From: Marsupella aquatica
Taxonomy: Eukaryota; Plantae; Marchantiophyta
Assembly (NCBI GenBank): GCA_973895155.1
Contig: OZ316891.1
Coordinates: 28,711,145-28,775,144 of the forward strand
Length of the DNA stretch: 64,000 bases
Reading direction: 5' to 3'
Shown: positions 8,948 to 43,115 of the stretch, piece by piece
How the letters are laid out: the number at the start of each line of letters is the position of its first letter
How positions within the stretch are numbered: the first letter of the stretch is position 1
The notes under the pieces: generated by a model
Seen by the model: only the letters and a program-made list of their open reading frames with translations
Database searches by the model: none
Told to the model about the DNA's origin: nothing
Position numbers and translations under genes: made by a program

Positions 8948-8959
8948 AAACAAAGGCTA

Positions 8960-15085: not shown

Positions 15086-15628
15086 GAGGTGTTTACAAAA
15101 GGCAGTAAACAGCAAACAGAAAACTATAACAGGAACTGGTAACAGCAAAATTTCCTGTTTTGGGAGCACATTTCTCCTGGTATTGTGGCAAAATTTAAAA
15201 AACCCGTTCCTAAAATACTGATAATTATGCGATGCCGAATACTAGCGCCGGGAGTCTACAGGCAAAACAATCACAAACGCATCATAACGAATACTAGCGC
15301 CGGGTGTTCGAACCCAAAATAATGAAACATTAATCGCCCAAACATGCCGAATACTAGAGCCGGCCGCTTCTAATGCTTTGTGGAGAAAATCACGAGAACG
15401 TAGGATTGATGTTCAGGCTGAGATCCAAGTAGAAACCAAAGATTACTAATAGTCTAAGTTCAATATCAAAGCACAGAAGTAGGACTTAACCAAGGTATCT
15501 GAGTCATAACTTCTAACGGTAAATTGAAAGAAAAGAAACCCGAGATTTTTTATTTAAGTGAAACATATTGTCCTTGATGTCCAAATATTGCTACATAGGA
15601 ACACTAAAGTTTCTATTGCAATTGTAAC

Positions 15629-18600
15629 TAGCGCCAGGCGCTAATACTCCCGGTGGGTGCTTCCTCGTACAATGCCCTAGCTCGAAGTGTGACAGTCATC
15701 ATCAATCCCAGTGTCCTGACGATTTGGATCATGGCGGAAACAATCTAATCGGAAGTTGACATATGCTCTCGTGGGCCGTCGATACACTGGCCTTCCATGG
15801 AATCAAGAAGGAGAAGAACGAGAGCAATGGACTTTGAAAGAAACAATAGTATGTTTACGATCAATATTCAAACCCTAAAATTTCCCTAAGTTAGGCCAAC
15901 ATTGACCCTGAAGTATAAAATAAAAAACAAAATGAATACAATTTTTGAATATTTTTCCTTAAATGAATGTCATGATTACCGTTTCAGATTAGCGCCCGGC
16001 GCTAATATTAAATGGGAACATTTTGGTATAGTTTTAGATAATATTTGGAAAATAGATACAAACATTAGGATTTATTCTGAAACCCCGGATAAAATATTCC
16101 AATTTTATACCACAATTTAGGGTGTGGGTTTGAGTAGCGCCTGGCGCTAAACATATATTGAACCATTTTGGGTCCATGTTGGAGTGAGGATGTTTGAGTA
16201 GCGCCCGACGCTACTCAATTAAGATGATTTAATAAACATGATTATGGTCTTCGTAAATGGACATCTTATGCTCATTAGTGTAAATGTCGTTGACATAATG
16301 ACAAAAAACATTTATTGTGTCAGATGTGGTTTCGACCGGTAGTGATTATGTCGTATTCCAACGGCTCTGACAAACGGATTATTCACTATGAATACCATTA
16401 TGTGCATTCAAAGACGTCATTCATTATTGTGAATTGAGTGTTTTTGGGTTGGATGATCTTACAATGTCAAGGTCAATCGTTCTGACGCGTCCGTCTACGG
16501 GTGACCTTGTATCCATTCCATTGTCGGCCAATGACGTATACAAGCAAGTTAGTGAGAATTATCTCTGTGGGCGCTTTGGTTTGGATTTGAATGACATTGA
16601 GGACATTTTGGACGAGGGAAACGGCGATGAAACCTCTAATTTCACTGCTTCTTTTGATGTTGATGACGGGATTCGTTTTTGGCACCTGAATGCAGGAATT
16701 CGGTATTCTATTGTCATTCAAAAACTAGTCGCATCCGATCTCCCATCTTCATCCAAACCCTTTGTTGATATTGTCTTGCTTTCAGATAGCGACGATGATG
16801 GACCTTCTGGTTTGCCTGAGTCTAGTGATAAACCCCCTCACACAGTTGTTAAACAGGAGGTTACCCCTGTTAAACAGGAGGTTCGAGCAGTTTTTACCAA
16901 AAATTCCATTGTGTATCGGAGAAGTGCAATGGATACCATTCTCAAGTCAACTGGTTCCAGTGAAATCTCGAGGTTCATCGCGGCTGGGGACTTCTGCCAT
17001 GAACAAGTCGGCTGTTTGCCAAAGAAATACAATGGAAATATTGTATTCGAGTTGCCTCCTGCGGGAGCTCTTTCAAAGGGGTCACGTCTACGCGACATGG
17101 ACCGGTCGAAGGATTGCTACATCTGGACCAGAATATTTCCTACATCAGCTAATGTTCATCCCAAGAAATATTTGGAATTTGGTAAAGTAACGTGCACTGG
17201 TTCCATTGAGTGTAGGAATAATACTTGCGACTATTTTCGACGGAAGAAAAGGAGGAACCAGAAGGCCTGGGGTGGAACCCCTAAACTTGGTGGGCAACAT
17301 CGTGTTGGCTCCTTCATTGACGAAGGTGGAGTTGTTTGCCAATTTTGTGATCAAGTTCCGTTTTGTGTCCAATCTTGTCCAGCAAGGTTATTTTACATGT
17401 ACCCCCAGGTTCTAGTTGACTCAGAAACCTGTACTCACATGTCCCGCTTGGCAATTCATATGGGGATCCACAACCATCCTTCAAGAAAGGTGTTTTCTCG
17501 GAGCGCAGAGAAGATTGTTGAGGAGGTTATCAAAAAGAAATTGGAAGGAAATCCAATTTTCACTCCTGCTGGTGTAAAAAATGTGGCGACAGGGTCTTTT
17601 GTAAAGTCCTTGTGTGAAAGTGTGGAAGATATTCAAGATATTGAAGAAACCAAGATATTTGAGTCGCTCATGGTAGTTTCCACACCCCAGAAGTTTGTGT
17701 CCCTCTTTCGTAGTGTTAGACAGGACCAGAAAGGTCGAGGTGAACTAGATTTCCTTGTTCGGTATCAAAGAAATATCAACATGCCTTTCCTCCAAAGGTA
17801 CCTCCTACCAGGTCAAGGGTCTCAAGAAGACCGTCCTCACATTTTCAAGATGACTTCGATCGGCCATGGATCAGGCGTCGATCTTTTGAGACAAATGCAA
17901 CCTGGTGGAAGTCTTGAAGGTTCTTGGGTAAGTTTTGATGTGATGAAACGACTCACAAAAGACTGGGTTACTTTTAGTGCGCATATTTACGATCATAACT
18001 ATCGCGCTCTGTGTACCTTATTTACCTGCGAACTAAAAGCGGAGGATACAGAGTCGTTCGAGAAGGCTTGGAGACTAATGATTGAGGTGTCCAAGGAGAA
18101 TGGATTAGAAAATCCGATTATTCATGGATTCATGGCGGACAATGCTCAAGCTGGTTGGCTGGCAGTCCGAAATGTCTTTTTTGGAGGGCATCCAAACCTT
18201 GAGCGTGAGCGAACTGACGCATTCCATTTCTACCAAGACTTCCATCGCCATTCAGTTGAAGGAGTGATTGAAGAGAGTCAAGGAGAGCATCGCAGGCTTT
18301 GGGATAAGATGCGAAATGCCCCGACGTTTGTAGAGGCTTACAGAATTTCAAGGGAGATTGATTTGTGGTGGCAGTCGGGTAACTGTGTCCCGGGGAAGCT
18401 TCGGATGCTCCAGAGTTAGATTTCATGGTGGGTCGTCAGGTGGAGGCAATGGGGAAATTTTATTCGTTTGGTAAGTTAGTTTACTTTGCTTTCCGCTCTT
18501 TAGGTATTACTGTGCTATATTCTCATCACAAAATGTTTGTATCCATATTCAAATATTACAATACCATAGCATCCTTTAATACTAGCGCCTGGCGCTATCA

Positions 18601-20506
18601 TTTATTCAAACTGTCATATGACACAATACGACGCAATAAGTCATCCCTTAATGGACAGTGCCAGTTTTTACTTTTAGGTACAGACTGTACTTCACTAGCG
18701 CCCGACGCTAGTGTTTTCTTGTTGCATAACAGACAATTTATTCTATGTAATTGTAGAACAAGAGTGTCGAAGAAGGGGCTAAGATTCCTAATTGTACAGG
18801 ATCAGAGTCCTTGCACGCAGGTATGAAAGCATGGGTAATGAAGAAAAAGGTTGGCCTCTTTGAGGCATGTGAAATGGACCAAAATCGAGCTATTTCTCAG
18901 GTTGCTGCTTACACTGCGTATCGGAAAGGGTTGCATAGAGGAAAAGGTCCAACAATTTGGGAACTCGCTTTCCGATCAGCGGACCAGGCAGGCTCCCCCA
19001 AGTTGTATGAAGATGCAATGAATATGCTACTGTCCAATGCTGCCGAGTTTGAGTTGGAGAGACGTGCACCTCTCAATGGAGACGTTGTCACCAAATCTTT
19101 GAAGAGGAAAGGACATGCTTCTGGGAATATCTCGCCACAAGACTCCCATAGGCATGATAAAATCCTTGTCACCTCGCCCAATACTAGATCGATGAAGAAG
19201 AATCTTAATTGCACGACGTTTGATGCTATCCCTGGCCCCACGCCTCAAGTTAATCTTGTTGTTAATCTGTCTGGAAGTGACATTTCGGGCGGTGGAGAAG
19301 ATGTTGATTTCAATACCCCTCCTGCTCGAGACCAAACGCGTTCAACGAGGCTTCCCCAGACTGCTCCCTCCGTGCTTCAGCAACCGTTACAAGAGTGTCT
19401 TGTCCGTGAGACCGAGGTTGCCCCAGCTGCATGGCAATTACATCAAACTTCAAAATTTGGCGCTAGTCCTCAGTGCAACGGATCATTTTCCCATAATTCT
19501 GAAAGAGATGAGTGTCGCAATCGCGTGAAAAAAGTTGGATTTCCCTCACCACATGGTGTTATCGGCGTTGTTGTCAAAGGACAACGTATTTTCAGGGGGG
19601 AACCCATAACCGAAATGATTTGGTTTTGCCCAAACAATACATGTTACAGAAGCCGCCCTCGTCGAGGTGTATTGAACCTGCCCCCTTTCCCAGATGTTCT
19701 TCCCGTTTTGAAAGGGACAAATGTTTCGGAAGACGAGCTGCAATATCTTCTTGACAACGGAATCTCCCTAGTGCGCGGAAATGAACGTACAACTACACCC
19801 CCGTCAGATTTTGATCTTCGAATCAATGTCAATATCTTTCCAGAACATGTGAATCTTGTCGAACCCAATGTTTGTCTCCGAAGCCGGAACGGGAGGAATA
19901 CGGTTCCTCGGTCAAATCTTACCCAGGGTCACATGAACAGAATTGCGTCTGCAAAAAAAGAGACGATGTCCATTCATGGAGAGTGGGATGTTGCGATTGG
20001 GAATGCATGGGGAAAGCAGTTTAAGGTGCAAACGCACGAAAATATGTGGACGCCAAATTGTTACTTTGTTCAAATTTGCATTTTCCCCACTTGCTCGTGT
20101 GAGGATTTCTACCGGCGACATTCTCGGAAACATCCATATATGCCTTGCAAACATTTGTATTGGATTTTCCTTACCGTTTTCAAACTAGACGTTGAGGAAT
20201 CTACATTGACCAGCCAACCAATTGTCACTGTTGGAGAGGTTTGGCTCATATTAGAGAGGCAAAATGCTCATGGTTTATAGCATGAATCATGATGATATAG
20301 GTTGTATTATTGGTCCAAACGGTTATATTGATTTTGTCGTTTGTCAACGGAAAAGTGTTATTTATGTCGCGTCATGTTTTGTTAGCGCCAGGCGCTGATA
20401 ATTTTGTCGTTTAGGCTACACCATTAAATATCATCGTGTTGTGCTTGATGTTCTCAACGCCAACTATTTGTTTCCTGAAATACCGATAAGATAGCGTCGG
20501 GCGCTA
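15629..20506. repeat. Dispersed 15-bp palindromes TAGCGCCNGGCGCTA in copy A
   Basis: 15629, 15990, 16135, 16199 (upstream); 18583, 18696 (intron); 20383, 20492 (downstream); degenerate copies at 15243, 15295, 15355. Confidence 0.92.
16464..20280 (+). pseudogene. Two-exon Mutator-like DDE transposase with N-terminal GCM/WRKY-like Zn domain and C-terminal SWIM finger (premature TAG at 18417)
   Basis: Exon 1 16464-18470, GT-AG intron 18471-18756, exon 2 18757-20280. Motifs: CTGSIECxNxxC...CxxC...C...HxGxHNHP; WVSFD; GFMAD; DAFH ((C/D)xxH); NCTGSESLH (catalytic E); SWIM CSC..CKH. Confidence 0.88.
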
Positions 20507-21205
20507 GTCAAGACGTTGTTCGCTTTTATTTTGGACCATATAATACCATAAAGTTTTGGGATGCATTCATTTTGTATTATTTTTATATATTTTGTTGCCA
20601 ATTGTGGTGGGACCTACCATTTTGTGCGCATTCCTTGACATTTTTATGTATGCTCCCCCTTGTTTGTGTTGGGATATGAGGTTCAATTATTATGTGGTTC
20701 AGCGATTCATGACATGGTATCCTCCCTCACCGCAATTGACTAACTCCAACTTAAACAATTCTAAACTCCTGATTGTGTGTTCTTTCCCCTGGTACAAGAT
20801 GTTTTTTCCTGGTAACAGCATAAGATCACCCTATTCATTAAAAGTGTATTTCATTTTGTTCACTTTTTGGTCTCTAAATGTACACTTTTTAACCCCAAAA
20901 GGGACATTATAGTACAATACTCTTCACCCAAATGGTCAATTGTAAACTTAAGGGGACAAAAATGATCTTTACTAGAAGGAGTCTCATCCTAGTTCATTTA
21001 CAAAGGATGAACATGGTGGTACATCTGATGGCCATCACCTTTATTTCTTGCTCAAATATACACTTTTTGAAAGCCAAATGTACACTTTTTATTGCCCAAA
21101 TGTTCATAAATTGAATAATAATACACTTTTAATTAATAGATTGATTAAGGCAAACAGGAAAAGTATTTGTTGTTTGCCTGTTTGTTGTCTCGGTCGCTAT
21201 ACCCC

Positions 21206-21300
21206 ACTGCACTTGCCTCTTTGTCAGAGGGTTTGCGGCGCTAGGTTCTTGGTCAAGCAATGGATCTGAATTGTTTGACTTGGATTATTAGCTTGGGAGT
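21206..21300 (+). pseudogene. C-terminal end (motif X) of the DNMT3-like methyltransferase
   Basis: Reads TAL-ASLSEGLRR*VLGQAMDLNCLTWII, in frame with the 15085 break after removing transposon A. Confidence 0.85.
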
Positions 21301-21494
21301 AGTTGAACAGTTGCAGATGCGCTTTGCTAGAATTACTGATTGTCCCTTGGTGAGCTTGCATGCGGTCCACTGAGACAATACTGACCACAGTTAGGGGTGA
21401 GCAGACAGTCCATGGACCTATGGCAGGATTGGCCAAGGCTGGACAGATTGTTGAGCAAGAAGGGACTGCTCAATCTACTGCTAAATAGCAATCA

Positions 21495-23062: not shown

Positions 23063-23240
23063 GGGGTATACTAACAATGTTAGGAAAAAGGAGAAATTTT
23101 ACTGTTATTAGGAAAAAAACTCCTGATATAAGGAAAATTTGTGCAATTTTTGGGATAAATTGTCCTCATATGTTCCCTTTGCAGCAATGTAATTAAGCCA
23201 GGATAACAAGAATATATCCTCGCTAGCAATATTAACATAT

Positions 23241-23399
23241 TAATATGGATTAATCATGGACATTCAATACACCAGCAAGCTCACTTCCTTCATTGCATTG
23301 TGGGAGTGGAAATCTCTCCCTATGTAGTACATGGTATGGCGGTTATGTAACCTCCTATGTTCTAGGGTAAGTAGGGTTAGGGTTTTGTCCCTTATAACA
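23241..23399 (-). repeat. Copia 3' LTR (159 bp, TG...TA termini)
   Basis: Identical to 29275-29433; preceded on the minus strand by the PPT at 23400-23409. Confidence 0.95.
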
Positions 23400-24248
23400 C
23401 TCCCCCTTGGTTGAATGAAAAATATTTCAAACAACCATAAAAGTATGGGGAAAAACTAACCCTTGTAATGATATGTCTATTATTTGGCCAAAGTGTAGTA
23501 TGGTCTCATTAAAACCATGCTTCAATCATGGGAAGAGTGCCACTACTATTACATGGTCTAAGGCCAAAAATGAAATATATCAAAGAATTATAACGATAAG
23601 TAGTTTGTATCTGTAAAAGTAAATCTAAGTTCTATTGACTATTGAGTGTAAGGCTAAGTGTAAAAAGAAGTTTACAGACTAGGTATGCATTCGATAGTCT
23701 CCTTCGTGAGTTGAAGCTTGAACTTCGAGGTAATTGATGGGAACGGGAAATCGGAGATTGCTCTGTGATCAGATGTTGCTGCGCGGCAGTGCTGAGGTAG
23801 AATGTGGATGGCTATTGAGTCAAGAAGTTGAGTCGAGAAGTGGCGATTGAGTCGTTGTTGGGGTCGACTGCTGCTACTTCCGTTGTTCGCGGTTGTGCGC
23901 CCAGGGTCCTGGAGTTTGGCGTCGTCCTGCGCTTGGTTTGTTCGGTGCAATAACTCGGTCATAATCAATAAAGCTTGGACGGTAAGAAGATGTTGCGCTT
24001 ATGTGTGATTAAGTGCGAAAATGAGTTGGTTGCTAGTTGACGTCTATCTCTCTCGATTCTTGATTTGTAGATATATCCTGAGCTCGGCTCTGTTATTCAG
24101 CTTGCGGATGAGCATAAGTCAAATGTCGAGTGACAGAATGGTAGTAGAGTATATCGCTGGTTATCTATAGATATTCGAAACTGTAGCCTGTGTGTAAGAA
24201 ATATTGAGATATTCATGAATGCGCTGCATCAATAATGTCAGTTCCGAT

Positions 24249-27200
24249 TTATCTATCGATGCCCTGCAGCAGTGAGGTCATGCTTCTCATGCATATACCA
24301 TATGTATGTTCTCTATGGAGAGATGATGGTAGTGGTTTCGTAAATAAATCTGCTCGATTTTCCTTGCTAGGAATCCACTATACATTGATCTGTCCGCCGT
24401 GCTGCTCATGTGTATAAAAGAATTTAGGTGCTATATGTTTAATACGATCGCCTTTGATAAAACCCTGCACTATCTGATTGACACAGGGTCGATTATCTTC
24501 ATAGATAATCGTAGGTTTATCCAAACGAGAGTTCCCTGTGTGTGTATGAATATGATCCATCAAGTTTCTTAACCAAATGCATTCCCTAGTGGCTTCGTAG
24601 AGGGCAATGATTTCCGCGTGGTTGGACGAAGTAGCTGTCAATGTTTGTTTGCAGCTTCTCCAGGAGATAGCAGTACCTCCTTGAAGAAAAACATATCCCG
24701 TCTGGGATTTTGCATCGTCAGGGTCTGAAAGGTATCCTGCGTCTGCATATCCCACCAATAGATTTTCTGACTGCTTGGGAAAGAATAGTCCCAGGTCTGT
24801 GGTTCCTCGTAGGTAACGGAATACTTGCTTTACGCCATTCCAGTGACGAATAGTGGGTTTGGCACTATGGCGTGCAAGAAGATTGACTGCAAAAGAGATA
24901 TCAGGACGGGACTGTGTAGCCAGGTACATGAGAGCCCCGATTGCTGAGAGGTAAGGCTTTTCTGGGCCAAGAATGGCTTCTGGTGCAGTCCATTTCCTGA
25001 ATGTATCCTTTGCAGGATCTGAGGATCTCAAATCCATAGGAGTGCTAATAGGGTAAGCAGTCTCCATGTTAAACTGTTTTAATACTTTCTCAGTATAGGT
25101 AGATTGAGTAATGAGTATGCCATGATGCAAGTGATTAAACTGTAAGCCCAAGCAATAGGTGGGTTTACCTATGTCCCGCATCTCGAATATCTTCTTCAGG
25201 ATGTCTATTGTATCAGCTGTAATTTTTGCTGTGCCAAAAATATTGATGTCGTCAACATAAATTGCTATAATGACGAATTCATTTCCGTCCTGTTTGAGAA
25301 ATAGGCAAGGGGCAATATCGTCAGTAATAAAATTCAGTGCAATCATTTCAGCTTTGAAGCGTTTATACCAGGTCCGCCCACTCTGTTTTAAACCATATAG
25401 AGAGCGAAGTACTTGAACTGCAAGTTCTCTTTTAACTTTCTTTGTTTGTGTAACAGGGGTAACCTGTGAGGAAGACATTCGTTTCCTCTGAGCGGATGTG
25501 TGTAGCACATCTTGTGTGGTTGGGACTAAAGGTCCAGTCTCAGTCGTCACTGAAGTCAAATTGCCTGTAGGACAAGTTTGCTGTACTCCAGGTTGTAGAC
25601 CTGGGCTTAGTTTACCGGTTTTCTCCCCCTCAATGTGAAACGTCAATCGCTTGATGAGTTCGGGGGGTGCCTTCATATAAATTTTGGTATCAAGGATACC
25701 ATATAGATAGGCAGTAATCACATCTAAAATATGCATTACTAGTTTGTGGATAAGAGCATATGCAATAAGATATCTATATGTGATGGAATCCATGACAGGA
25801 GAGTATGTTTGATCAAAGTCCCGCCCGGGGATCTGGGTATAGCCCTTCGCGACTAGGCGCGCTTTATGTCTGATAACTTCTCCTTTCGCATTTTGTTTTC
25901 TAACAAAAATAAATCTGTATCCTGTAAGATGAAGTCCGGCAAGTGCAGGAATGATGGGCCCAAAAACTTTTCGTCTGATTAGGGAGTCCAGTTATGAATT
26001 GATAGCTAGCTCCCATTGTGGCCAATCCGGGCGAGTTCGGGCCTCAGCAATGGTTAGGGGATCAGGAGTTGTATTGATAATGTCCTCGGAAATCTGGAAT
26101 GCAAAGATATCATCAATTCGGATTGTATCACGCTGCATTATCTTCCCGTATGTACGTAATTAATTGTGATCTCCTCATTATCGGCTGGTCCTTGTGAAGA
26201 TGGTTCTATGGTTGGTGTAATGGTGGGAGATGGACGAGCTACACTCGTGCGGGACTGTCTTGGATGAGAGTCCTTGGATCCCAGTGGGCGTCCTCTTTTG
26301 GCCTTGGGTGCAGCGTGAGTGGCTGGTGTAGGCTGCCGAGAAATTCGAGCTGGTATGTTGGCTGCTTCGATGTGTGAGCGAGTGATAGTGGCTGCATCGT
26401 TGAATGCATCAGGAAGTTTCATAAGCATCTGTTGTAAGTGGAGAACACATTGTACTTCCAGATCTATTTCTTTAGTTCGGTGGTCCTCTGTAAGCAGGCG
26501 AGGAGACAACCATTGTAAGTCTTTCACTGGTACATCGCCATTTCTCTTGGGATCTTCTGTAAGGGTTGGAAAATTGTCTTCAAAGAAATGGCAGTCTTGG
26601 AACCGTGCTTTAAAAACATCTGCTGTGGAAGGTTCCAAATATCTTATAATAGAGCGTGAGTCAAAGCCCACATAGATACCGCGCTGTCTCTGAGGTCCCA
26701 TTTTAGTTCTCTTGGGACCTAAAATTGGGACAAGTACCAGGCAGCCAAAAATTCGTAGATGTGTGATGTCTGGTGGTAATCCATATGCTAGAAAATGTGG
26801 GGTCTGTGTATTAAATGAGGACGGTCTCAATCGAATAAGGGCAGCTACATGCAGGACCGCATGGCCCCAAGCTGATGCTGGTAAATTTGACTGCATCAGG
26901 AGAGGTCTGGCCACCATCTATATTCGTTTGATTATGGATTCTGCAAGATCATTCTGAAAGTGAACATGTGGAACCGGATATTCTGTATTGATACCTGCAG
27001 TTTCACAGAAGGTATCGAAAGTTTTGGAGGTAAATTCCCCCGCGTTATCAACTCTAATGGTTTTGATGGGATTCTTTGGGAATTGGTATTTTAATTTCAA
27101 TATGTGCGATAATATTCGTGGGAAGACCAGGTTACGGGTAGAGAGCAGGGAGACCTGTGACCACTTAGTAGAGGCATCAATGATAACTAGGAAATATCGG

Positions 27201-28927
27201 AATGGGCCAGAAGGAGGGTCAATGGGGCCACAGGCATCAGTGTGTATTCTCTCCAAAAATTGTGGTATCTGATGTATTGTCTTGGATGGTGAGGGACGGG
27301 TAACCATTTTTCCTTGTGAGCATGCGAGGCAGGGTTTGCTGGTAGCAGATGGGTGAACGCCTTTAGGTATGCCCACGGTAGCCTTAAGTATATTGTGGTA
27401 CATACTTGTACCAGGATGTCCAAGGCGATTATGCCATATTTGTGTTAAAGTCAGTGAAGTACTTGTAGCATGATATGAATAGATTCGGGTGATGTAGAGT
27501 CCTGGGGGATATATGGGGAGTATCTCTCGCACTAATCTCCCTGATGTGGTATTTTCCAGGATATGTAGGACCTCACGGTTGCCACATGTCTCTGTATGAA
27601 TGTGGAATTTATTGGCGCGTATATCACTAAAACTTATCAGGTTTTGAGTAGCCCACGGAGCATAAATGGCGGAGTCTATGTGGAGAATTGTACCCTTGGG
27701 GAATCTGACTTGTGCTGGACCATAACCTTCCTCTATATGATTAGGTCCAGTTATGGTTGTCATGGATCTGTGGGATGGAGTGATACGTAGGAAATAATCT
27801 TTATGGCGTAGGATGGAATGAGATGTGTTGCTATCGACAATACAGTTGTGATGATCGTCGAGCATAGAGGGATTAGCTCCTAATTGGGCAGTATGTACTT
27901 CTGGTGCATATCCCTCAATATCATCTGTAGTTTCCATATAGTTTCCATGGGCTTCATTACTAGGTAATTCCATGCTTTGTTTATAAAGTTGGACCAGGTG
28001 GGCAGGAGATCGGCAATTTTTCTGTAGGTGACCCTTTGTGCCGCACTTGAAACATTCAGTCAGATTTTCGTTCTCTCTGGTCCAACTATTAGGTCCTTGG
28101 CCACGGCCTCCACTACGGCCTCTGCCTCTGTATCCATTACCTCGTCCACGTTGTCCTCTTCCTCGATAAAAATGTCCAGAAGATTGATATTCCAAATTAT
28201 GGAATTGTCCATAGCCTCTGCCCCTTTGTTGGTTTCTGCCTCTGATAAATGGTCGTTGTCCTCTCCCCCTGAATGTGCCACGTCCTCTGCCTCGGATCTT
28301 ATCATTTTGTCTATTGAAATTGATTTCAGGTTTGGGTGGTGGAGCGGCTGTACCTGGTGGGCGAGATTTTGCATTTTCCAGTAGGAGTATTTGGTGCTTC
28401 TCAGCAAGAAGCATATGAGCAATTAGCTCAGAATATTTTGTAAAACCCATGTTTTGGTATTGGGATGCAAGGATGAGATTTCCGGCACTGAACGTTGATA
28501 GGGTTCTTTCAATCTGCTCGGCGTCATTAATTGGGTGGTCACAGATTGCGAGTTGAGAGGTGATGCAAAAAAGTTCTCCGTTGTAGTTTGATATAGAAGT
28601 GTGGTCCTGTACACGCAAAGTTATCCAGTCGTGGCGTGCAGCCGGCAGGGAGACTAGGCTCATGTGATCAAACCGTGATTTGAGATCTTCCCAAAGAATT
28701 TGGGGGTTGTATTGATTGAGATATTGAATCTTGAGTGGCTCTGCAAGGTGGTGGCGTATGAAGATTAATGCTCTCGCCTTTTGCTGTAATGTTAGGTCTG
28801 CATCGGTTAAAATAGTGTCCTGTAGGTCTTTTGAGTAAAGATATGCTTCGACATCAAGTGACCAGGATAAATAATTGGCACCATCAATAGTTAGAGCCTT
28901 CAATTGAAGCTTCTCTATCGAATTCAT
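24249..28927 (-). pseudogene. Copia gag-PR-INT-RT-RH polyprotein, disrupted
   Basis: CFKCGTKGH..C knuckle, CIVDS protease, WHNRLGH / CLAC, IHTD / RVDNAGEF integrase, SLYGLKQSGR / YVDD RT, YADA / AEII / YEDN RNase H. Stops at 26918, ~25995 and 24378, and a frameshift near 26140. Confidence 0.93.
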
Positions 28928-29260
28928 GGTGATGGAAGTTATGATGATAGGATCTCAAATCGAGTTATATCAAGCGATTTGTGAGTTATGCTCTGCCTGA
29001 ATTCTTTAAATCAGTTGTGGCATTGAGGTCTAAGAAATTCAAATGGAAAGAAAACGGTGAAGAAGAAACTTCCTCGTATTGATCAAAGAGCAAATTTCAA
29101 TGTGGGTATTCGGTGTTCAGATGTCAGCGCTCCTGATCCTTCAAGGTGTCGTTTGAGAAAAAAAATTTGATCCTTGGTTCAATCAATAATTCGAAATGTG
29201 CATATCGGTTCACTGAATCGATTGCTTAAGGAAAAATCAAGAATTGTGCTCCAAGGATAG

Positions 29261-29274
29261 TCGTGCTGATAACG
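29261..29274 (-). promoter_or_regulatory. PBS complementary to the anticodon arm of tRNA-Ile (half-tRNA primer type)
   Basis: CGTTATCAGCACGA directly after the 5' LTR, with no TGG/CCA end; this PBS type is known for Bianca elements. Confidence 0.75.
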
Positions 29275-29433
29275 TAATATGGATTAATCATGGACATTCA
29301 ATACACCAGCAAGCTCACTTCCTTCATTGCATTGTGGGAGTGGAAATCTCTCCCTATGTAGTACATGGTATGGCGGTTATGTAACCTCCTATGTTCTAGG
29401 GTAAGTAGGGTTAGGGTTTTGTCCCTTATAACA
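29275..29433 (-). repeat. Copia 5' LTR (159 bp)
   Basis: Identical to 23241-23399. Confidence 0.95.
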
Positions 29434-29689
29434 CATATACGATTGTCGAATGATTTAGTGTATCAATTACCGAGCACACTCTCATACTTGGTATGTTTTG
29501 TAGGGAGACTTATTGTTAGCAAAGATCGCCAACAATATTAGACCCCAACATTGATCACTCCAAAAACTTTACACATTAACCACTCATGGACAATAAAATA
29601 GATTCAAAGATCAAAAAAACTTTCATAATAAGCCGGATATAATTCTCGGCTAGGCATGAAAATCAAATTTTCATGCAATACAACTTTTC

Positions 29690-32600
29690 CCTACATCTTC
29701 AAAATATACCTCACCTCAGACAAGCTAAGGACTAGTTGGCTGACATAAATTTATTCTTGAACACTAACATTAAAGCGATAACAAAAAACCCAATATAAAT
29801 GTTTGCAGGGAACATATGAAAGCCCTCGTGTATGGCGATTGAAGAAATCGTCACAGGAGCATGATGGAAAATAGCAAACTTGGACCCAATATCTTTTTGG
29901 TATCCTTCCATCTGTCTCGTGTGTTGCAACAAACAATTGTTTTCCCCAACCATTTCCCAACTTGATGATGTTCTCTGTCAATACTCGCATCTGCTCCTCC
30001 TCTGATGATTTGATGCGTTTCAAATGCTCTAACGAAAGAGTGACCTAAACTTCAAAATCGATGCAACGGGTCATTCAAGTTTACCATCTCACAAAATGTA
30101 CTGACATTAATTTGTAACTCCAAAGGTGAAGGGGCACTCACCGATGGGGAGACATTTGTCACATGTTCTCTTTTGGAGGGATTAGTTTGCATTCCTAAAT
30201 CCAAGGAAAGCCCTTTCTCAATGAGGAACATAATTTCCTCACTAGCAAGACTGGTCCCTAGCATAACAGGCAAAACATCAGGAATTGGTGGTAAGGAAAC
30301 AATGGAACATCGTGGCTTTCCTCGAAAACAAACATTATTTGGACAAAACCAAGTAAGTCGAGGTACGTTTGATCCAAAAATCCTGTGTGCAACAAAAACC
30401 GCAATAGCCACGCGGCCCCTTGGGTCCAGAAATGATACTTTTTTCACAAAATTTTGACATTCCTCTCGAGTTGCAGACCTACCAAGAAACCCACAGCACT
30501 TTGGGCCGACCCCTTTGGAAGACATTCTACCTATATACCAACTCCCTTGGGGAACTCTTACTTCATGGCATGTCAACGGAGCACTTGACTCGGCAACGGG
30601 CGATGGGACTACAGGTGTAGGGGAAGGAGTAGGAGTTGAATGAGTAGCGATGCGTCTGGGCGGAGTCTGAAGGACCTCAAACAATTCACTCTTAGACAAA
30701 TTGACAACCTCTGGTATCGAAGCTCCCTCGGGCCGATCCATTGATGTTGGCGGCCCTCTTGTATAATTAGGACTAAACTCAGTAGAGTTTAGATTTCGTC
30801 TCCTTGACGCAGTCTTAGCAGGGGATGTAAGAAGAACCGTGTCATTTCGATGAGAGTCCTGGTCAGAGATTTTGTCACTCGCAATTCCCTTCCTCTTTGT
30901 TGATTTTGTTTGCAAATCACCATTTAATGGCCTAGTCCGTATAAGATCAAACTTCCCATTAGCTTCCATCAAATAATTGGTCGCTTTCTCATGAGCGGAA
31001 GCAGAACCAACCATATTTGCATGGCAAAATGCAAGCTCAAAAATTGTAGGCCCTGTACCTCTACTCACACCGGACTCAAATCCGATGTAGCAAGCAACTT
31101 GGAAGGCAACACGATTGGAGTCAACTTTGCAAGCCTCCACTAGAGTCACTTTCTTTTTGGGTTGGGAAGCACGCATGGAAGCATGGACAGATTCCAAACC
31201 AGTGCAATTTGGCATTCTTGTAGACTCCAGAGCGTCCGCCGACTGAAACAAAACACATCAGCAAAATCAACGTAAGTAACGGATTCCACCAATGTTAACG
31301 AAGGTCGCTTGCAATATTTTGATGAGTAGACCATAAAAAATTTAGTAATGATGAAGACCATACTAGCCTGATATAGTTCCCCCACTGTCTCCATCGAACG
31401 ACCCACCAGGAAATCCATCCTTGCAGATAGCGAAGTTTCCCTGGAATACAATTCCCGGATTGCCACCACTCCTTGATCTCCGAAGAAATTATGTAAGCTT
31501 CGACGTACGTGGAGGCATTCCTCAAATGGTCCCATAAAACATAATGCTGGTCGTGATTTTTTTCCAAAATACCTTCATGGGTATGCCTCCGGAGTGATTG
31601 GAAGAAATGAAAAGCATCAGACCTTTCTTTTTCTGGATTAGGGAGACCCTGCCAGAATACATTCCGAACCTCATTCCACCCTGCAGTGGCATTATCTGCC
31701 ATGAAACCATGGATGGTAATGTCGTGCAAACCATTTTTGGATGCGACACTTACCATCAACCTCCAAGCCGTAGACAATGATTCACAACATTCAGACTTCA
31801 GCTCACAAGTAAATATTGTGCAGAGGGCACGGATATTATGATCATAAACGTGTGCACTAAATGTCAGCCAACCAGTAGTAATCCGATGCATAACATCAAA
31901 ACTAACCCATGATCCTTCAAGAGAACCCCCTTTTCTCATTCTTTGAAGAATATCCAATCCAAAACCTGGACCTTTTACGCTCATCTTGAAAACATGAGCT
32001 CGATCAATAATTGTGCCTTGACCGGGGAATAGAAATCTCTGGATGTAAGGAAAATGAATGTTCCTTTGCATGTCCCGAATTGAATCAAACTCCCTTTTCA
32101 AGGGATTCTCCATTTTCACGTTCCTCAAGATGGCTTGGAATTTCTCTTTGGACGCTAGAGCACTCAATGAGCTCCAAATATCCTGAATGTCCTGGGCAGA
32201 AATCCCAGTGGCACTCTCCGGAGCCAAGTGTGACATCAATGACTCCGTTGCATCAATTTTTAGTTGAGCTGGTGTGGCCAAGGGGTTCACTAAATGATGG
32301 TCTCTGATGACCGACTTTGCAGCAATCATGGCCTCCCTCGAAACAAAACTATTCGGTGGGTGGACATAGTATCCGACATGCATGGCAAGCCTGGACATGA
32401 ATCTCACATTTTCCTTATCCACCGAGGAAAGTGGGTACATGTAAAACATTAAGGCAGGACACGTCTCCACACATATAGGCGGTTGGTCATAATGAAAACA
32501 TACTATTCCTCCGGGAGAAACTGCTTCACCAGTCTTGTGGACTCGGTCTCCTTTTGCCCTTCCAGCCCAGGACACTCGATTCCTTCCTTTGCCCTTATCT

Positions 32601-33277
32601 AAGAATGCACACTTCCCATTTTGACATTCAATCGACCCAGAGCACCGTACTTTTGCGAACTGATACAAATCTTTTGGAAAGACATTCGCAGAAGTTGGAA
32701 TAATTCTAGTCCAACGATAGCAATCATTCTCTCGATCCATGTATCTGAGCCCAGATCCTCTTTTAGTGGATGAATCGACTGGGGGAAGCTCAAAAATCGA
32801 GTCCCCATTATAATCTTTGGGAAGACATTGAACATGTTTGACATCCTCTCCCGACTCCAAGAACTTAAGGACAAAGCGAGATATCTCACTAGAGCCTTTA
32901 ACCCTCAATATCATGTCACACGCACTCACTTGATAAACCGAAGAAAATTTATCTGGAGACTCAGTTTTGATTTCACAAACATCAATGTCTGCTTCTACTC
33001 TCTCGGGGGATGTGTCAATTTTTGTAACCAGAGAGTACACAAAACCAGTTTTCAGTCTCCAATGTCGAACGCTATGGACACTCGAAGGCTCAATCCGGGC
33101 AGGACTCAAAATGGAATCCTCTCTCCTCCCGAGTACATCTTGGATGAATGGCCCCTCACATCCAAGTCGTTGACCTAGATAAGTTTCACTCACGATTTTC
33201 TCTCCAATCAATGAAAAAACAGGAAGAAAAATCACATCTCCAGTAGACTCCCGCACAATTCTGATTTGGGATGCCAT
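29690..33277 (-). pseudogene. Two-exon GCM-like/DDE/SWIM transposase, copy B
   Basis: Exon 1 33277-31364 is open (WVSFD, GFMAD, DAFH); intron 31363-31243; exon 2 MPNCTGLESVH...; stop at 30052; SWIM CSCDDF..PCKHLYW near 29790-29870. Confidence 0.88.
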
Positions 33278-33567
33278 TTAGAAAACGTAGATAGAGTGGA
33301 ATGGAAATCTTGGACAATGTCACAGAATCAAAACAAAGGTGTTTCTCAACCCTAAATTGGTAATTGTTGTCCGTTGAAATTTTGAACGACTCTAAGATTT
33401 TGAAATGGTAACAACCTCGGCATTAAATATTTTGTCGTTTGTTTTGTATCCGTTAGGATGTCCAATTACTACACGAAGATAAGTAAATTTAAAACTCTTT
33501 ATATATTTGGTAGAAAAAACATACACTGGATGCTAGCAAAGATCGCTACCAAAATTGTCACAGCATC

Positions 33568-34101
33568 TTAACCTAAATTATGCCTCACTAGAGATGAAGA
33601 ATCTGCCAGTATTGATCCTACTCCTTCTGATCTGGATCGGGAGGGGACTTTGCCAAACAAGAAGACATTTCTTCGTCCGGGACACCAGTTGCTCGACGGT
33701 ATGTCTTGTGTGAAACCATGCTCCCTCCTCTGACTAAATGCTCTACTTGGGGCTCGGTAGACAGGCCTTCGGCTGCTCCCGCTCGCAAAGTTTGAATCCT
33801 AGAAATTAGGAGATCCCAAGACCTCGTGCTTTCAAAGTTCTAGATGACGGGGCCAAAATGTGGCAGGATCGGACGGAACATGGAAGAAGAACCGATCTGC
33901 AAACTGAAGAGCGGGCTCATCCCTGAGCCATGGAATGTTCCGCTCCCCTGGACTCATTCCCTCATTCGGTGGGAGGCTATTCCTATTTTGGATGTCCGAA
34001 GTGGCAGAAACATACGTCTCAGACTCCTGCTCCGTGGTCTCCTCTTCCTCTACAATGGGGCGCTTTCCATTATTGGGCTGCATCCTCTGCATACCGTCCA
34101 T
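33568..34101 (-). pseudogene. Small frameshifted accessory ORF upstream of transposase B, unknown function
   Basis: MDGMQRMQPNNGKRPIVEEEE...WPRHLEL continues in another frame as ESTRSWDLLISRIQ...RHNLG*. GC-richer coding-like island in AT-rich flanks. Confidence 0.45.
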
Positions 34102-35124
34102 GACCAAAGACGATAGTGACACAAGTAAGAGATATCACAGAGCCCCTGGAGAATCACGGATACAATCACCAACAGCAGGCGCCTATATCAATGAGCGAGA
34201 GATTGGAATTACCGTGAGCGAGAGATTGGAATCCCCTAGAGCGAGAGATTGGAATCACCGAGGGTGAGCTAGCGCCTAGAATAGACCGAGAGAGAGTCAA
34301 TCCCCAAATGAATCAGTGAGCGTCTAGAATATACATCTGATAGTTTGCTACTCAATATATGGACCGAAAACATAACAAAGACGAAAACTCTCGGAACCTT
34401 CAAAGATGGCCGACCAACGAACCCTATCCCGACCGACGACCCCAAATACCATCCGACCAAACATACATATCCATCGGATTCCCTGGCATCATTTGACACG
34501 TACAGTAACGGATAGATTCGTCCAACGGGTATACAATGGTAATAAAGAATGATAACTTTTGCTAGCGATCATCGCTACCATTAACCATTCTTAAAACGAC
34601 TCGTATTGAGCCTCATATCACTGAAATATCCTATAAATTCAGAAAAAGTGAGAACGTCTTTTGATAGCGACCTTCGCTATCAAAAATTAGAGTTTTCAAC
34701 ATCCAATATTGGAGGTCAATTGGCCTAAATTTAACCATGTTGTTGGCTTCATTTCATTGATATAAATATGGAATAGTTTGATAGTGAGGGTCGCTACCAA
34801 AAGTTAGCATTAAACGGTAACTTGAATTGTCTTATGTTCGCCTTATGTGTTCTAAAAGTTTTTGGATTTGCCGTTAAACATCCATGAATTTAGGTTAGGT
34901 TCCGTTAAACCATCCGTAATTAAGTAGACATTGTCATTAATTAATCTGTTGGTATGACTAATTACCATTGTATATTGTTCCTATTACCGTATGACACGTT
35001 CCAAAATCCGGCTGCTTTCGATGTGAGTATTGGGTAATACCGAAAACCTGAAATTACTGAAAAATTTAAACTTTTTACAGTATTTAAGCCTACTGTTGCT
35101 GTTAAAATGCCAAGTGTAAATTAT

Positions 35125-35235: not shown

Positions 35236-35397
35236 GCTAACTTCGCAACGGGACTTAGAAACGGATTGGGGACTTCATACCTTGATAGGAATCAAGCACA
35301 GAGTTCAGGCGCTCACTCCTGTATTTTCACCACCCCTATTCACTTGCTCTTTCTCTTCGAAAGCAACCTTCGCAGCAAGCAAATCACCGTTGCAGCT

Positions 35398-37827: not shown

Positions 37828-38045
37828 GGCAGAATCTAAGTCTTTTTAGTTAAGTTTTAAGAATAGTGCATCTTTCCCTATTTTTCAAAATGTGTTATAG
37901 AGCTTTAAAAGCTATGAAACTTATTTAGTGAGTAGTCTGTACCTAGGACAACCTACTGGCAAAATTTCAGAATTTTCCGAGCCAGGAGTAGAAAGTTAAA
38001 AATAGTTGAATTCGGTAAGTCTTTAAGTCTACCGCATTCACCAGA

Positions 38046-38122
38046 TTACGCCTTTACGTTTTTACCCTTTTACGCGATTACGTCTTTACGATTACGTCTT
38101 TACGCTTTTACGCTTTTACGGG
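38046..38122 (+). repeat. TTACG-rich cluster downstream of the LTR ORF
   Basis: About 8 TTACG words spaced 6-9 bp apart. Confidence 0.85.
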
Positions 38123-39394
38123 TTCTTACTTAGCCATTTCCAGGCTTTTCACTTATTGAATCGTTGTTTTGACTTTTTGAGGAGTATGAAGAGGCATGTC
38201 TCTTCGACCCTATGACCTCTTACCCTGTAGGATTTTACTATAAGACCCCTCCACCACTAGTGTAGAAGTATGGTAAAGTCTAGCAATTTTTGCCTTTCCT
38301 TGGTGTTCTGCCAGTTGATCATGAATGTTAAGAGTTCAAGATCAAGCTTGACACCAGGAGAAGACTTTCCTCCTTCTTGTGGTTTAATTCTTTGAATAAA
38401 TCATAGGAAGTAAAATTCCTTTTGTACAAATCTTTTGAGTTGTGATGACAGATTCCTTGTTGGTGACTCATTGCAATCTCTTGAGTTCTTGAAGTTAACT
38501 CACTGAGTTTAAGTCTTATTTGAAATTGATGGATTTTCTTTCATGTTGCTTAGTACCATCTAAATGTTGAAGTAGCTACCTTTTAGATTTTATCTGAGTA
38601 CCACTTAGAAAGAAAGGATAAGACATGTTTACGGCATTTTAATAGGTACTCTAGTAAGCATTTTAGATCTGAAAAGCAAACGTGGATTTGAAACCTTAAG
38701 TCTTTTCATTTTGACTTATGTCTAAGGAGTAACCTTGGTCTATTCCAGACTCCCTTAGCGTACTTTGAGATTATTTTCTCTTGTGTCTTGTTAATCATTC
38801 CTTTTTCATTAATTTATTGTTACCCAATGCTGAGTTACCATTGAAAACTACTCACCGCTGTGGAGCGATCTTCAAAATACCTTATTAAAGTAATCAATTC
38901 TGATTACTATGTGTTAAAGAGAGTTCTTAAACTCTCATTTGTGTTTTTATGTATCAAACCAACCCCATCTTGTTCTTAACGGGAACGAATACCGAGTTTA
39001 GAGACGTAAAAGAGTTCTTTTGGTTCTCTATAGCAAACTACATTCGATATGGAGGATAGTATTATATCCCGTTTAGAAACGGATCACGGTATTACAAACG
39101 TTCCATTGTACTTCGCACGGCTTGGTCAGTCGAGGAGCGGATGCTGGTACGGTGTCTTTGTACGTGGAGTGTCATCCGTACCCAATGGCGGTCACTCTTT
39201 GGAATAGTCATGCAAATGTTTTTAGGGGTATCAAGCCCAGTGGTGAACCAATGGATCATTCTTCTTTGCCGCGCTCTCAAACTTCTTTCTCCGCCTCCTC
39301 TCTACAGACTACAAACTCAAGCAGAAGAGTGACTCGGTCGACAGTAGAGTGGCAAATTCTTTTCATAGGCTTGAAAACACGAAGAAGATCAGTC

Positions 39395-39850
39395 ATGTCT
39401 CAAGACACACACAATGTTCCGATGGGAGGCAGCAAAATTCTGGACGCGTTCTCCAAGGTGCTTGCTCATCACTCTCTTTTGTTTGGGCTGAACGAAAGGG
39501 GGGACATGCAAGAACCTCCTAGGATTCCACTTTGTCGACTCATGAATATGGACTTGGTGAGGTTGCTCCAGGTGCAATCGGGAGCTATCGACAATCTTGT
39601 CTCCAAGTTCAAGACGAATGGATACGTTGACAAGTTGGCCAAGTTTTATGTTTCTGTCTGTGATGCGGAAGGTGTTGAGATTCTGGTCACCGAAGATATT
39701 CGAGCAACTTGGGATGATGTTTGGGTTCAGCAAAATGCCGCGTTTGAAGCAGAATGTGACGAGAATCCAGAATTTTCGTGCCTTAAGGACAAGATGTTTT
39801 TGGTTTTTGATGGGAACCATCGTCTATATTTGTGGATGATAGTGCACTCA
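39395..39850 (+). pseudogene. Truncated ParB/Sulfiredoxin-like N-terminal domain protein
   Basis: IPLCRL..VR...V..L...F...GY layout followed by FLVFDGNHR (ParB/Srx DGxHR motif). The sequence changes character shortly after the motif. Confidence 0.55.
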
Positions 39851-40606
39851 TCAGTGGATGAAGAAGATACGGAGACTCCCATGCAGATAGTGTCGGCGAC
39901 GGCCGACTGAAGCATGGGTGATATCCCTAGCGGGAACAGAAGTCGGGCCGCTCGCATTTGGCCGACTGGATCCTTCGTTGCGTCCCACAGTTGGGGCATT
40001 CTTCGTCTTTGAGATGAGTTTCCCCTTCTTCAAGATTGGAACCGTCGTCCTCTTGTCCCGAGGTGGTAAGCTATTTGATGCGGGGGTCTCCCGGTCGGTG
40101 TCACTTGGGACAAGTGCCTCCTCCTTTGCCTTCCCCCATGGAGGTGCCATTGAAAGTGAACTAGGACGAGAACAAGAAGCGCGAACAAGAACGTGAAGGA
40201 GGACAACAGCGTGAACTAGGACGAGAAAGAGAAACGAGGACGAGAAGGAGAACAAGAACGTGCACGAAAGCCAAAAAGAACAACTGGGCCCAAATGCGAG
40301 AACGGGAACCACGCACCCGAAAGATGAGCCACAACTGCGACTCAATAAAGAATGGCTTGACAATGAGGACATCGGAGGAGAACGACTAGATATAAGGAGA
40401 TTTTGCACTTGGTCCTGGCTGCCCACTTCAAAGAGGACCCTCTGATATAACTTTTGTGGACGCTTCCTCTCTGACACATTTGGACCCGAACGGATCGGAT
40501 TCGCGAAGATCCAGTGGAGATCTTAAAGCGTGCCAACTTAATGACTCGTACTGTATCGCGTTATCGTACTTATCCTTCCATTGAATGTTTTCAAGTCCAT
40601 TGAAAT

Positions 40607-43115
40607 AGGTAGCGCTAGGCGCTATTATTTATTGCCTTCGTACTCCTCACCCAAGAATGTTTTCACCCAGAGGTAGCGCCAGGCGCTATTATTATTGGCA
40701 TTCGTAGTCCTCACCCAAGGGTGTTTTACACATAGAGGTAGCGCCAGGCGCTAGTAACTATGAACCCGAATCCTGCCGTTGGTAAGACGACAAAACGTCA
40801 TTGATGGAGTGCGTCCAAATCTATAACGACTCTATAATGAGAATGGAACGTTTACTTCTCGTACTCGAATCTCATGATAAACATATTTCATTTCACGTGG
40901 GGCAAATGCATATCCCTCTTTTGAAGCCATGGCTCAAAATATCGTTGTCACGAGGAAGGACACTCTGGATGTAATCACAATTCCCGTCCTCGAATCATCT
41001 GAATCAAAGCGTGTTTCAGAGGAATATTTGGGAGTGAGATTTGATGTCACCAAGGAGTCTATTTTAGCGATCTCGTTAGTGTCGGTTTGTTTGGGGGAGA
41101 CTCCAGTTTTCTATGATGTTGTTCATGGTCTAAGATATTGGACTCTAGAGGCTCAGAAAGAATATGAGGTTTTTGTTTTGAGAGATTCTGGGGCCTCCTA
41201 TACTTGTCCTCCCACAATGGCTGAACTCGATGTCATCGAACTCTCGGAAAGTTCTGGAGATGATAAGCAAGCGACAACTACTCTCGGAGAGAAGATTCTA
41301 GTTTACCCATCCGAGGTTAAAAAGGAGTCTAATGCGGATTGAGAAATGATTGTGCCTTTGACTGTGTACCGGCAGAGTGCAATGGATACAATCTTGAAAT
41401 CCAAAGGTCATAGTGAATTGTCTCGGTTTATAAGGGGGAGTGATTTTGTTCATCACGTAGTGCCTAGTCTTCCCACATCTTACAATGGGAATGTGGTTTT
41501 TGAGTTACCCCCGGTAGACTGTGTGAACGCAACAGGTGAACGTTTGAAAGATATGGATCGTGGTAAGGATTGTTATTATTGGACTCGGATTGTGAAAGCG
41601 TCTTCAAATGTTCTTCCGAAGAAAATGTGGGATTTTGGGAAAGTCCAGTGTACGGGATCGCTGCAATGTCGAAATAATGCTTGTCCGTGGTGGAAAGACA
41701 ACAAGTTTCGAAATAATGAGATGTGGGCAAGAACCCCAAAACTTTTGGGCCCATTCCGAGTTGGGGAATTGATCTCCGAAGGTGGAGTTGTTTGTCACCA
41801 TTGCTCCAAACCTCCGATGTGCGTTGAGGCCTGCCCTGCTCTAATGTTCTACATGTATCCATCTGCAAAAGTTGACGTTAAGTCTTTGGCCCACATATCG
41901 CGACTAGCTGTTCATATGGGATCTCACAATCATCCCAGTTGACGGGTCTTTTCGAGGGAGGCAGAAAAGGTTGCAAAGTCTCATCTGGAGAAGGGATTCA
42001 CTGCAAACCCGATGGCGACTGAGACACTGACAAATACATTTTGCGAGGCCTCTATTGAAGAAATCTCTCTTGAAGAAGAGAAGGAAATCTGGGAGTCCCT
42101 GATGGTCGTCGCATCTCCTCAGAAGTTTGCATCCGTGTTAAGGGTGTTCGTCAAGATCAGAAGGGGAAAGGGGAAATGGAATTTCTTGTGAGGATGCAAA
42201 AGTGTATCCGACTACCTTTTCTTCATAGGTTCTTGCTCCCTGGTCAAGGCTGTCGGGATGAGAGTGCTCATATCTTTAAAATGACCGTAAAAGGTGACGG
42301 TAGTGGTCTGGACCTGCTCCAAAGAATGAAACCTGGTGGGTCGTTAGAGGGTTCATGGGTAAGTTTTGACGTGATGCATCGAAGCACGGCAGATTGGCTT
42401 ACTTTCAGTGCCCATGTATATGATCATCATTACCGGGCACTTTGCACCATATTCACTAGTGAGCTAAAGGCCAAAGATGCAACATCTCTGGAGAGAGCCT
42501 GGCGTTTGATGTTAGAGGTTGCCGATGAAAATGGTTTACAGGATGTTACAATTCGGGGATTCATGGCGGACAATGCTCAGGCTGGTTGGAATGCTGTTCA
42601 AAACGTGTTCTTTGACGGTGTACCCGACCCAGAGCAAGAAAGATCAGATGCCATTCATTTTTGCCAATCTTTTCATCGTCATTCCCGAGAAGGTGTAAAA
42701 TATGGAAAGCACGTAGAGCACAAGGAGATGTGGGATCGTCTTCGGAACACGCCAACTTTCTTGAAAGCATATCAAATCTCTAGGGAAATCGATGACTGGT
42801 GGAGGTCTGGCAATTGTCACTCAGGCAAACTTCGGATGCTGCAAGGGTGGCTGTCTTGGTGGGTTGTCCGATGGAGACAATGGGGGAACTTCATAAGACT
42901 GGTGAGTTATACACTTCTCTAGGATGCATGTTCCCATTAATAGCGCTCGGCGCTAGTGAAGCATGTGTGAGATAGAAGGGTTCCTTATCTGCAATAGTAG
43001 CGTCGAGCGCTAATAATCCATTTGGACTATGAATGATGTAAGGACTACCTTTATTCTATGTTAAACGGTTCTTTACATGGAAATATCATCATCAGTTTAT
43101 TAGCATCTGGCGCTA
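40607..43115. repeat. TAGCGCCAGGCGCTA-type palindromes in copy C
   Basis: 40610, 40674, 40739 (inside a ~64-bp tandem repeat) and 42941, 42998, 43101 (intron). Confidence 0.9.

Follow-up and report, generated by a model that had tools for sequence, protein, structure and literature searches.

The 64-kb window described here, which is the whole stretch analysed from contig OZ316891.1 of the liverwort Marsupella aquatica (positions 28,711,145 to 28,775,144), holds several transposable elements, three of which – copies A, B and C of a Mutator-like element (MULE) – carry in their non-coding DNA a short spaced palindrome, TAGCG-N5-CGCTA. Judged from their sequence and from structural modelling, the three are Mutator-like (MULE/IS256), as indicated by a 9-bp target site duplication (TSD) around copy A, a DDE RNase H core and an N-terminal domain with a GCM fold, the match to which is of moderate strength. 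Copy A, which is complete, sits inside the DNA-methylase open reading frame (ORF) of a gypsy element, and contigs of public runs hold both the empty host-gypsy site (joint 15080->21213, with 4 intervening letters) and further insertions that start exactly at 15086. At its termini 6 of the first 20 bases match inverted and a 100-base alignment is not significant (P=0.10); since MULEs without terminal inverted repeats (TIRs) exist, with TSDs of 8-11 bp across MULEs (available portions of PMC6446971), A is grouped with the non-TIR MULEs. Its gene has two exons and 1176 codons, with a premature in-frame stop at codon 652 (18417-18419), and no long ORF other than the transposase exons was found in copy A, which thus has no accessory gene.

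Palindromes in non-coding DNA of three elements

Fourteen exact copies of TAGCG-N5-CGCTA are present, against 0.01 expected from 100 dinucleotide shuffles of the window, within which all enrichment was assessed. The same arms with any other spacer of 0-14 bases have no copy in the window, so that the 5-base spacer holds in 14/14, and an unbiased scan of all gapped 5-/6-mer palindromes puts this one at the top with 14 copies, the best unrelated palindrome having 3. When the 14 exact sites are used to train a 25-bp profile, 22 sites reach the threshold score of 8, versus 0.8 in Markov nulls: 10 in A, 6 in B and 6 in C, every one of them upstream, intronic or downstream, in elements whose non-coding share is 36%. 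None lies in the ~47 kb of other window sequence (gypsy, copia and other neighbours). Exons hold half-sites at most, namely one stray A-type half-site at 19465, in the second exon of A, and two looser ones in exon 1 (16787, 31428). Site-to-site spacings of 57-145 bp reveal, by inspection, no consistent helical phasing. The palindromes are thus a real and well-constrained feature; neither the motif, in several spellings, nor this element or site was found in the literature searched, which lacked most subscription papers.

A preliminary description of this DNA had proposed most of this outline, and its placing of the motif in non-coding DNA and introns, its absence from neighbouring elements and its multiplication in C by a ~64-bp tandem repeat (at 40607-40753) are all borne out. 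Its count of more than 20 copies is reached once decayed copies are included, exact ones being fewer, and its first copy, at 15243, needs correcting: like two sites next to it, it is a half-site or a decayed one and belongs to a subterminal repeat of 52-60 bp.

Table 1. Coordinates of copies A, B and C and of their sites within the window
Feature	Position	Strand	Remarks
Copy A, complete Mutator-like element, 6119 bp, no clear TIR	15086..21204	+	TSD, empty-site joint, termini
Left 9-bp TSD CACTGCACT	15077..15085	+	right copy 21205-21213
Three subterminal half/decayed sites of A (15243, 15295, 15355), 52-60-bp repeat	15243..15369	+	157-269 bp from left end
Four upstream palindromes of A (15629, 15990, 16135, 16199)	15629..16213		265-835 bp before ATG
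Transposase exon 1 of A	16464..18470	+	ubiquitin-like domain, disordered linker, GCM-like domain, RNase H core
Intron of A, GT-AG inferred from sequence	18471..18756	+	palindromes 18583, 18696
Transposase exon 2 of A	18757..20280	+	likely catalytic E, Cys-rich domain, SWIM-like CxC...CxH motif
Two downstream palindromes of A (20383, one mismatch; 20492)	20383..20506
Copy B	23063..35000	-	3' end 23063, 5' end not found, ATG 33277, intron ~31243-31363
Orphan B-type half-site	23221..23225	-	~150 bp from 3' end of B
Six B-type palindromes	29517..34796		29517 downstream; 31296 intron; 33534, 34563, 34665, 34782 upstream
Copy C	40530..45173	+	broken transposase gene 40929-44718, intron 42902-43190, 3' end 45173, 5' end not found
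Three upstream palindromes of C in 64-bp tandem repeat	40610..40753		repeat 40607-40753
Three intronic palindromes of C (42941, 42998, 43101)	42941..43115

TSDs of B and C were searched for and not found. The upstream region of B is split by a GC-richer stretch of ~940 bp with 23-bp tandem repeats (~33560-34500), which is probably another insertion and for which a search for a TG...CA/TSD boundary found none. In the 3' end of A lies a 325-bp insertion resembling a miniature inverted-repeat transposable element (20821-21145; 26-nt inverted ends, 88%; no CpG), which is skipped in other copies and has several-fold higher contig depth. The 3' subterminal region of C (44981-45147) has short repeats around the palindrome CTCGTACGAG, a second motif unlike the TAGCG site.

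Site grammar, conservation and turnover

The full site is larger than the 15-bp motif of the preliminary description, of which the TAGCG-N5-CGCTA core stands: it reaches ~25 bp, each half-site consisting of outer bases, one free base, the TAGCG core and inner bases. In B the half-site reads TTGN-TAGCG-A, with T at -3, G at -2 and inner A each in 12/12 and a fully degenerate base at -1 (3/3/3/3). The inner base is C in 13/16 half-sites of A and 8/10 of C, which bears out the difference between A/C and B variants noted earlier; A and C half-sites also favour A two bases outside the arm and CC inside, and a pyrimidine two bases outside the arm is found in 37/38 arms of A, B and C. These statistics cover 19 sites, without 40674, a tandem duplicate, and without 34805, which was rejected as a B site on its two mismatches, profile score of 2.1 and ill-fitting flanks.

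A fourth lineage comes from a metagenome scan that gave four loci: L001, a contig whose transposase is 57% identical to that of A, is informative, L002 covers no more than 47 codons, at the edge of its contig, and the other two, L003 and L004, match weakly and over short lengths. No locus came from two viral scans, and a single weak match (L005) from a prokaryote scan. In L001 all three sites (3/3) have a 4-base spacer, with B-like outer and A-like inner bases, and lie in the same intron; the spacer is therefore constant within a lineage (5 in the window sites, 4 in L001), and the TAGCG core is common to all four lineages seen. In the transposase tree A and C, which share inner bases, are sisters (94/90), B groups with the relative P0002 and the placement of L001 is unsettled, so that motif variant follows the tree as far as four lineages with DNA, and an A+C branch just under the strong-support threshold, can tell. 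In coding DNA, the four lineages are 59-65% identical to one another; because A and C are only 65% identical, the variants, real as they are, are clade-specific rather than family-specific as had been supposed.

We infer that fixed spacing, base-specific conservation interrupted by a free position, and symmetric change between lineages are the imprint of a two-headed DNA-binding protein. Could that protein belong to the host, with the element exploiting it for expression or protection? A core common to all four lineages is what a slowly evolving host factor would need, but A/C and B, though they share one genome, have strictly distinct inner and outer bases, L001 has another spacer and no site occurs in the ~47 kb of other window sequence, all of which makes a host factor rather improbable.

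Symmetry would also be expected if the sites acted as hairpins in DNA or RNA, through splicing, RNA stability or cruciform extrusion. Sites 16199, 29517 and 34665 have 5-6 extra pairs and those of L001 6, 8 and 23, A/C sites have C-G and B sites A-T as their innermost pair, and a pooled arm-shuffle test gives P 0.013-0.03. The excess is gone, however, when arms are shuffled within lineages (P 0.16-0.28), the arm-adjacent base pairs in 6/19 sites while the next base out is conserved by identity, most 25-mers fold just a 5-6-bp stem (-4 to -6 kcal/mol) and there is no Rfam match. Since within-lineage shuffling removes the excess, it is identity and not pairing that is kept, and a hairpin function is very unlikely. 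One intronic site of L001 is itself the centre of a near-perfect palindrome of ~60 bp (1172-1231), the long arm of which may be an effect of template switching or assembly.

Base-specific conservation can be followed among family copies of A, using the complete list of 33 variable positions at 15965-16235 in contigs of four runs, the fourth of which contributes a single contig. Variable positions fall on 0/30 arm bases, 1/45 core bases and 32/226 others (Fisher P=0.014), and, for G/C bases alone, on 1/31 in sites versus 18/69 elsewhere (P=0.004). Free flanking bases do vary (16150, 16198), and 16151, the sole non-consensus flank base, carries the consensus base in some other copies. A wider contig comparison shows no site difference among the differences listed (40 of 930).

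Whole sites, in turn, come and go. Joints in family copies reveal a deletion between the two downstream sites (20380->20492), loss of a subterminal unit (15252->15374) and a duplication holding part of a site (16168->16116), and a loose contig end near 16090 carries an extra site. Together with the 64-bp array in C, such duplication and deletion of motif-bearing units is what would be seen were the motif a relic without function that tandem duplication and gene conversion had spread and homogenised. Against this, the CpG-rich arms vary less than neighbouring bases, and in A, B, C and L001, whose coding identity is 59-65%, nothing of the intron but the motif survives: after masking of the sites, alignments of 5/6 intron pairs do not beat those of shuffled sequence (P 0.065-0.80), A-B being marginal (P 0.02). 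A relic is the least likely of the explanations weighed here.

Transposase, relatives and surrounding elements

The transposase of A has an RNase H core, before which a ubiquitin-like domain (residues ~1-90), a disordered linker and a GCM-like zinc DNA-binding domain (~150-340) are predicted. It was modelled from 133 sequences with a predicted local distance difference test score (pLDDT) of 84 and disorder at residues 90-147, an earlier 7-sequence model having been discarded (pLDDT 40). The core finds its best fold match in the ISCth4 transposase (E 3e-4; Z 8.1, root-mean-square deviation (rmsd) 11.8, 198 aligned), and residues from ~157 match GCM (1odh; Foldseek probability 0.97; Z 5.9, rmsd 5.0, 139/157 aligned). 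Residues 1-90 match DWNN (Z 7.0, rmsd 3.4, 78 aligned), the TDP-43 N-terminal domain (Z 6.3, rmsd 3.2, 75) and PB1 (Z 5.8, rmsd 3.2, 73). Sequence comparison gives less: neither the A nor the B transposase has a Pfam match, none of the 133 alignment members matches the MULE profile, the clade being divergent, a sequence search of solved structures with the transposase returned nothing significant, and the Cys-rich domain of exon 2 has no Atlas or Pfam match, one Riccia relative being labelled SWIM-type.

Among alignment rows with a residue at the position, D492 is D in 43/47 and D559 in 37/51. A C or D at 585 is followed by H588, the motif in A being DxxH (585-588), and a C/D-xx-H motif is a mark of the MULE DDE RNase H core. 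E686 is the likely catalytic E. The intron of A falls between the second D and this residue, so that its retention would give a DNA-binding but catalytically incomplete protein. In all four lineages (A, B, C and L001) the intron follows a common exon-end motif, and the ORFs of distant relatives stop there too. A profile search found 707 transposase relatives (E up to 0.001), with no longer homologues, and the named ones among 20 looked up are four from Riccia sorocarpa and two from Calypogeia fissa. P0049 and related Riccia gene models have apparent N-terminal, GCM-like and C-terminal zinc domains and no DDE core; they could be regulator-only derivatives or mis-annotated pseudogenes.

The window also holds other elements. 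The gypsy element split by copy A (13910-15076 and 21214-23060) has a C-5 DNA methylase domain (PF00145) and is strongly CpG-depleted (observed/expected ratio, O/E, 0.15-0.41). Another, GC-rich gypsy (1-12973) has long repeats at 1-2870 and 10098-12973 that are 98.7% identical and contain a long ORF without Pfam match. Copy B is interrupted, in its 3' region, by a copia element (23241-29434) with 160-bp identical stretches of long terminal repeat (LTR), of which the left falls short of ~8 terminal bases, and the TSD CATAT. A 30-bp repeat forms two inverted arrays at 50067-51314, which suggest a foldback or CACTA-like element, and an exon at 52811-53692, without Pfam match, resembles a plastid SecY-type host gene.

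A predicted self-regulating system

The binder of the palindromes is probably the element's own transposase, which is the likeliest candidate because A/C and B sites differ within one genome and because the complete copy encodes nothing else. We further propose, at a probability of roughly 0.5, that the palindromes are docking sites through which the transposase would control transcription of its own element. Two GCM-like domains would each read one half-site, and preferences for spacer and flanks would be free to shift from lineage to lineage, owing to the flexible linker and to an N-terminal domain that oligomerises. The DNA-binding domains of MULEs have been assigned to the WRKY-GCM1 fold and proposed to act both in recognising sites and in self-regulation (PMC1702500, as far as its available text goes). 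From sites in the promoter, the intron and the 3' region, bound transposase would mark the whole element, every base of A being within 1.2 kb of a site (1192 bp at most). Which way such control would run is more tentative still: anti-silencing, whereby transposase bound at its sites would keep the element unmethylated and expressed, is possible and somewhat likelier than repression, which we regard as doubtful. The operator-like sites for a co-diverging, element-encoded protein envisaged in the preliminary description fit these data in their fixed spacing, free base and conserved arms, and their co-divergence is further consistent with the persistence of sites in unalignable introns and with the sisterhood of A and C; the complete copy has no accessory ORF.

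The preliminary description drew an analogy with the VANDAL elements of Arabidopsis and their VANC anti-silencing proteins. In the available portions of PMC5735166 and PMC10398659, VANDAL21/VANC21 and VANDAL6/VANC6 resemble the present system in being MULEs with absent or degenerate TIRs, in having upstream and intronic motifs, in gaining and losing these by tandem repeats and in their lineage-specific variants, and to this extent of layout and turnover the analogy holds. It fails on three counts: (i) VANC is a separate gene, of which complete copy A has none (B and C being without defined 5' ends), (ii) VANC21 sites in upstream regions and introns are dense and arrayed in one orientation (PMC5735166, in which the term 'palindrom' occurs 0 times), whereas spaced palindromes here are few and dispersed, with 2-4 per cluster, and (iii) VANC21 and VANC6 have different targets, whereas the TAGCG core is shared across four lineages. 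Without an accessory gene in the complete copy, and with palindromic sites, this is not a VANDAL/VANC system. A precedent for self-regulation is that VANC-induced hypomethylation extends beyond VANC sites (PMC10398659, in part).

A separate VANC-like protein might still be supplied in trans by other family members, and the VANDAL21-type layout, the room for accessory genes left by the missing 5' ends of B and C, and the Riccia models with DNA-binding parts and no DDE core (P0049) would suit it. Complete copy A, however, has no such gene, no ORF of A, B or C matched a Pfam family of that kind, and an ORF beside C (39077-39910) has neither relatives nor structure matches and no link to the family, so that this explanation has very little probability, slightly less than hairpins. 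That ORF, flanked by copy C and by a truncated gypsy leader, has a DGNHR motif, presumably ParB/sulfiredoxin-like. It was rejected as a site binder, being absent from A and without Pfam, PDB or longer-protein match.

The palindrome system is closer to transposase-intrinsic activation as described for AtMu1c, whose transposase suffices for binding, hypomethylation and activation of cognate copies (bioRxiv 10.64898/2026.08.24.746577, available portion). Like Spm TnpA it is a self-activator, and it shows that a MULE whose single gene is a transposase can bind its own motif and activate itself; copy A likewise encodes a transposase only, with self-binding predicted, and Spm motifs co-diversify with lineage (same source, in part). 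The difference is one of position, binding and hypomethylation being placed in that text at TIRs or termini, whereas sites here lie inside the element, at distances of up to 3.6 kb from its ends, and also in the intron.

Internal position brings in the remaining alternative, that of a transposition enhancer to which transposase would be bound, loading and oligomerising it and helping to pair ends without clear TIRs, after the manner of the E element of phage Mu (internal activation sequence, IAS). The inverted similarity of the ends of A is not significant, half-sites of matching type lie 150-270 bp from element ends, and in Muta1, a MULE of Aedes aegypti, more subterminal repeats lead to more binding and excision (PMC5499845, available text). 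The Mu E element and operators O1-O3 (PMC3145075, in part) are internal sites bound by an element-encoded protein and serve transposition as well as promoter control, as is predicted for binding here; they form a single cluster ~1 kb from the left end, need IHF and belong to a prokaryotic system with a separate repressor. In Muta1 repeated short motifs strengthen transposase binding and a palindromic motif matters, but the repeats make up the TIR itself and none is described as intronic (PMC5499845, in the portion available). Such precedents, then, are terminal or ~1 kb inside, whereas the intronic sites here are 2.2-3.6 kb from either end and kept in four lineages, and the upstream sites of A gather nearer the ATG than the element end. 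An enhancer is therefore unlikely, if less so than a host factor, and self-regulation of transcription is weighted above it because the layout in promoter, intron and post-stop region suits control of a transcription unit over end pairing. The palindromic sites are best described as a variant of transposon self-binding systems, with their function inferred.

Several observations weigh against self-regulation by transposase binding. The extreme termini that could be compared – those of A and the 3' ends of B and C – share GGG(G)TATA and not the palindrome, so that end recognition uses other sequences, and the AtMu1c transposase is reported to bind at TIRs and not internally (bioRxiv 10.64898/2026.08.24.746577, available portion). 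The match between variants and tree involves only the four lineages with DNA and the A+C support mentioned above, and flank pairing pooled across lineages is slightly in excess (P 0.013-0.03). The GCM and ubiquitin-like fold matches are middling (Z 5.9-7.0) and speak for fold, not function; the Atlas neighbours GCM, FAR1 and FLYWCH (0.77-0.87, GCM at 0.87) are a lead only. The conservation test comprises three sites (15990, 16135, 16199) in collapsed contigs, with possible misplaced reads from other motif copies. As for anti-silencing, 4/8 arm mismatches are CpG transitions, which implies that B and C sites were probably methylated at some time, and CpG O/E, at 0.86 near sites (these being masked) and 0.76 in non-coding DNA farther away, does not clearly rise towards them. 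CpG retention had been considered as a sign of anti-silencing (elements ~0.6-1.2 versus gypsy hosts 0.15-0.41) and was set aside, being confounded by family age and showing no clear peak at sites.

A broader proposal, about which we are distinctly less confident than about self-regulation, is that these elements may represent a widespread and so far undescribed clade of single-gene non-TIR MULEs, with named relatives in liverworts, that runs a one-protein anti-silencing circuit: spaced palindromic operators in promoter, intron and 3' region, whose flanks and spacer would co-evolve with the transposase, and an operator-bearing intron whose retention would yield a catalytically dead regulator.

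In conclusion, the palindromes of Marsupella aquatica outline a predicted protein-site pair outside the flowering-plant VANDAL, Spm and AtMu1 elements in which sequence-specific anti-silencing is known, and the natural variants – A/C type, B type and, in L001, the 4-base spacer – make transposase-operator co-evolution directly testable. The system may also bear on how transposases are recruited by elements without TIRs and on the origin of transcription factors of the GCM/WRKY fold from transposases.

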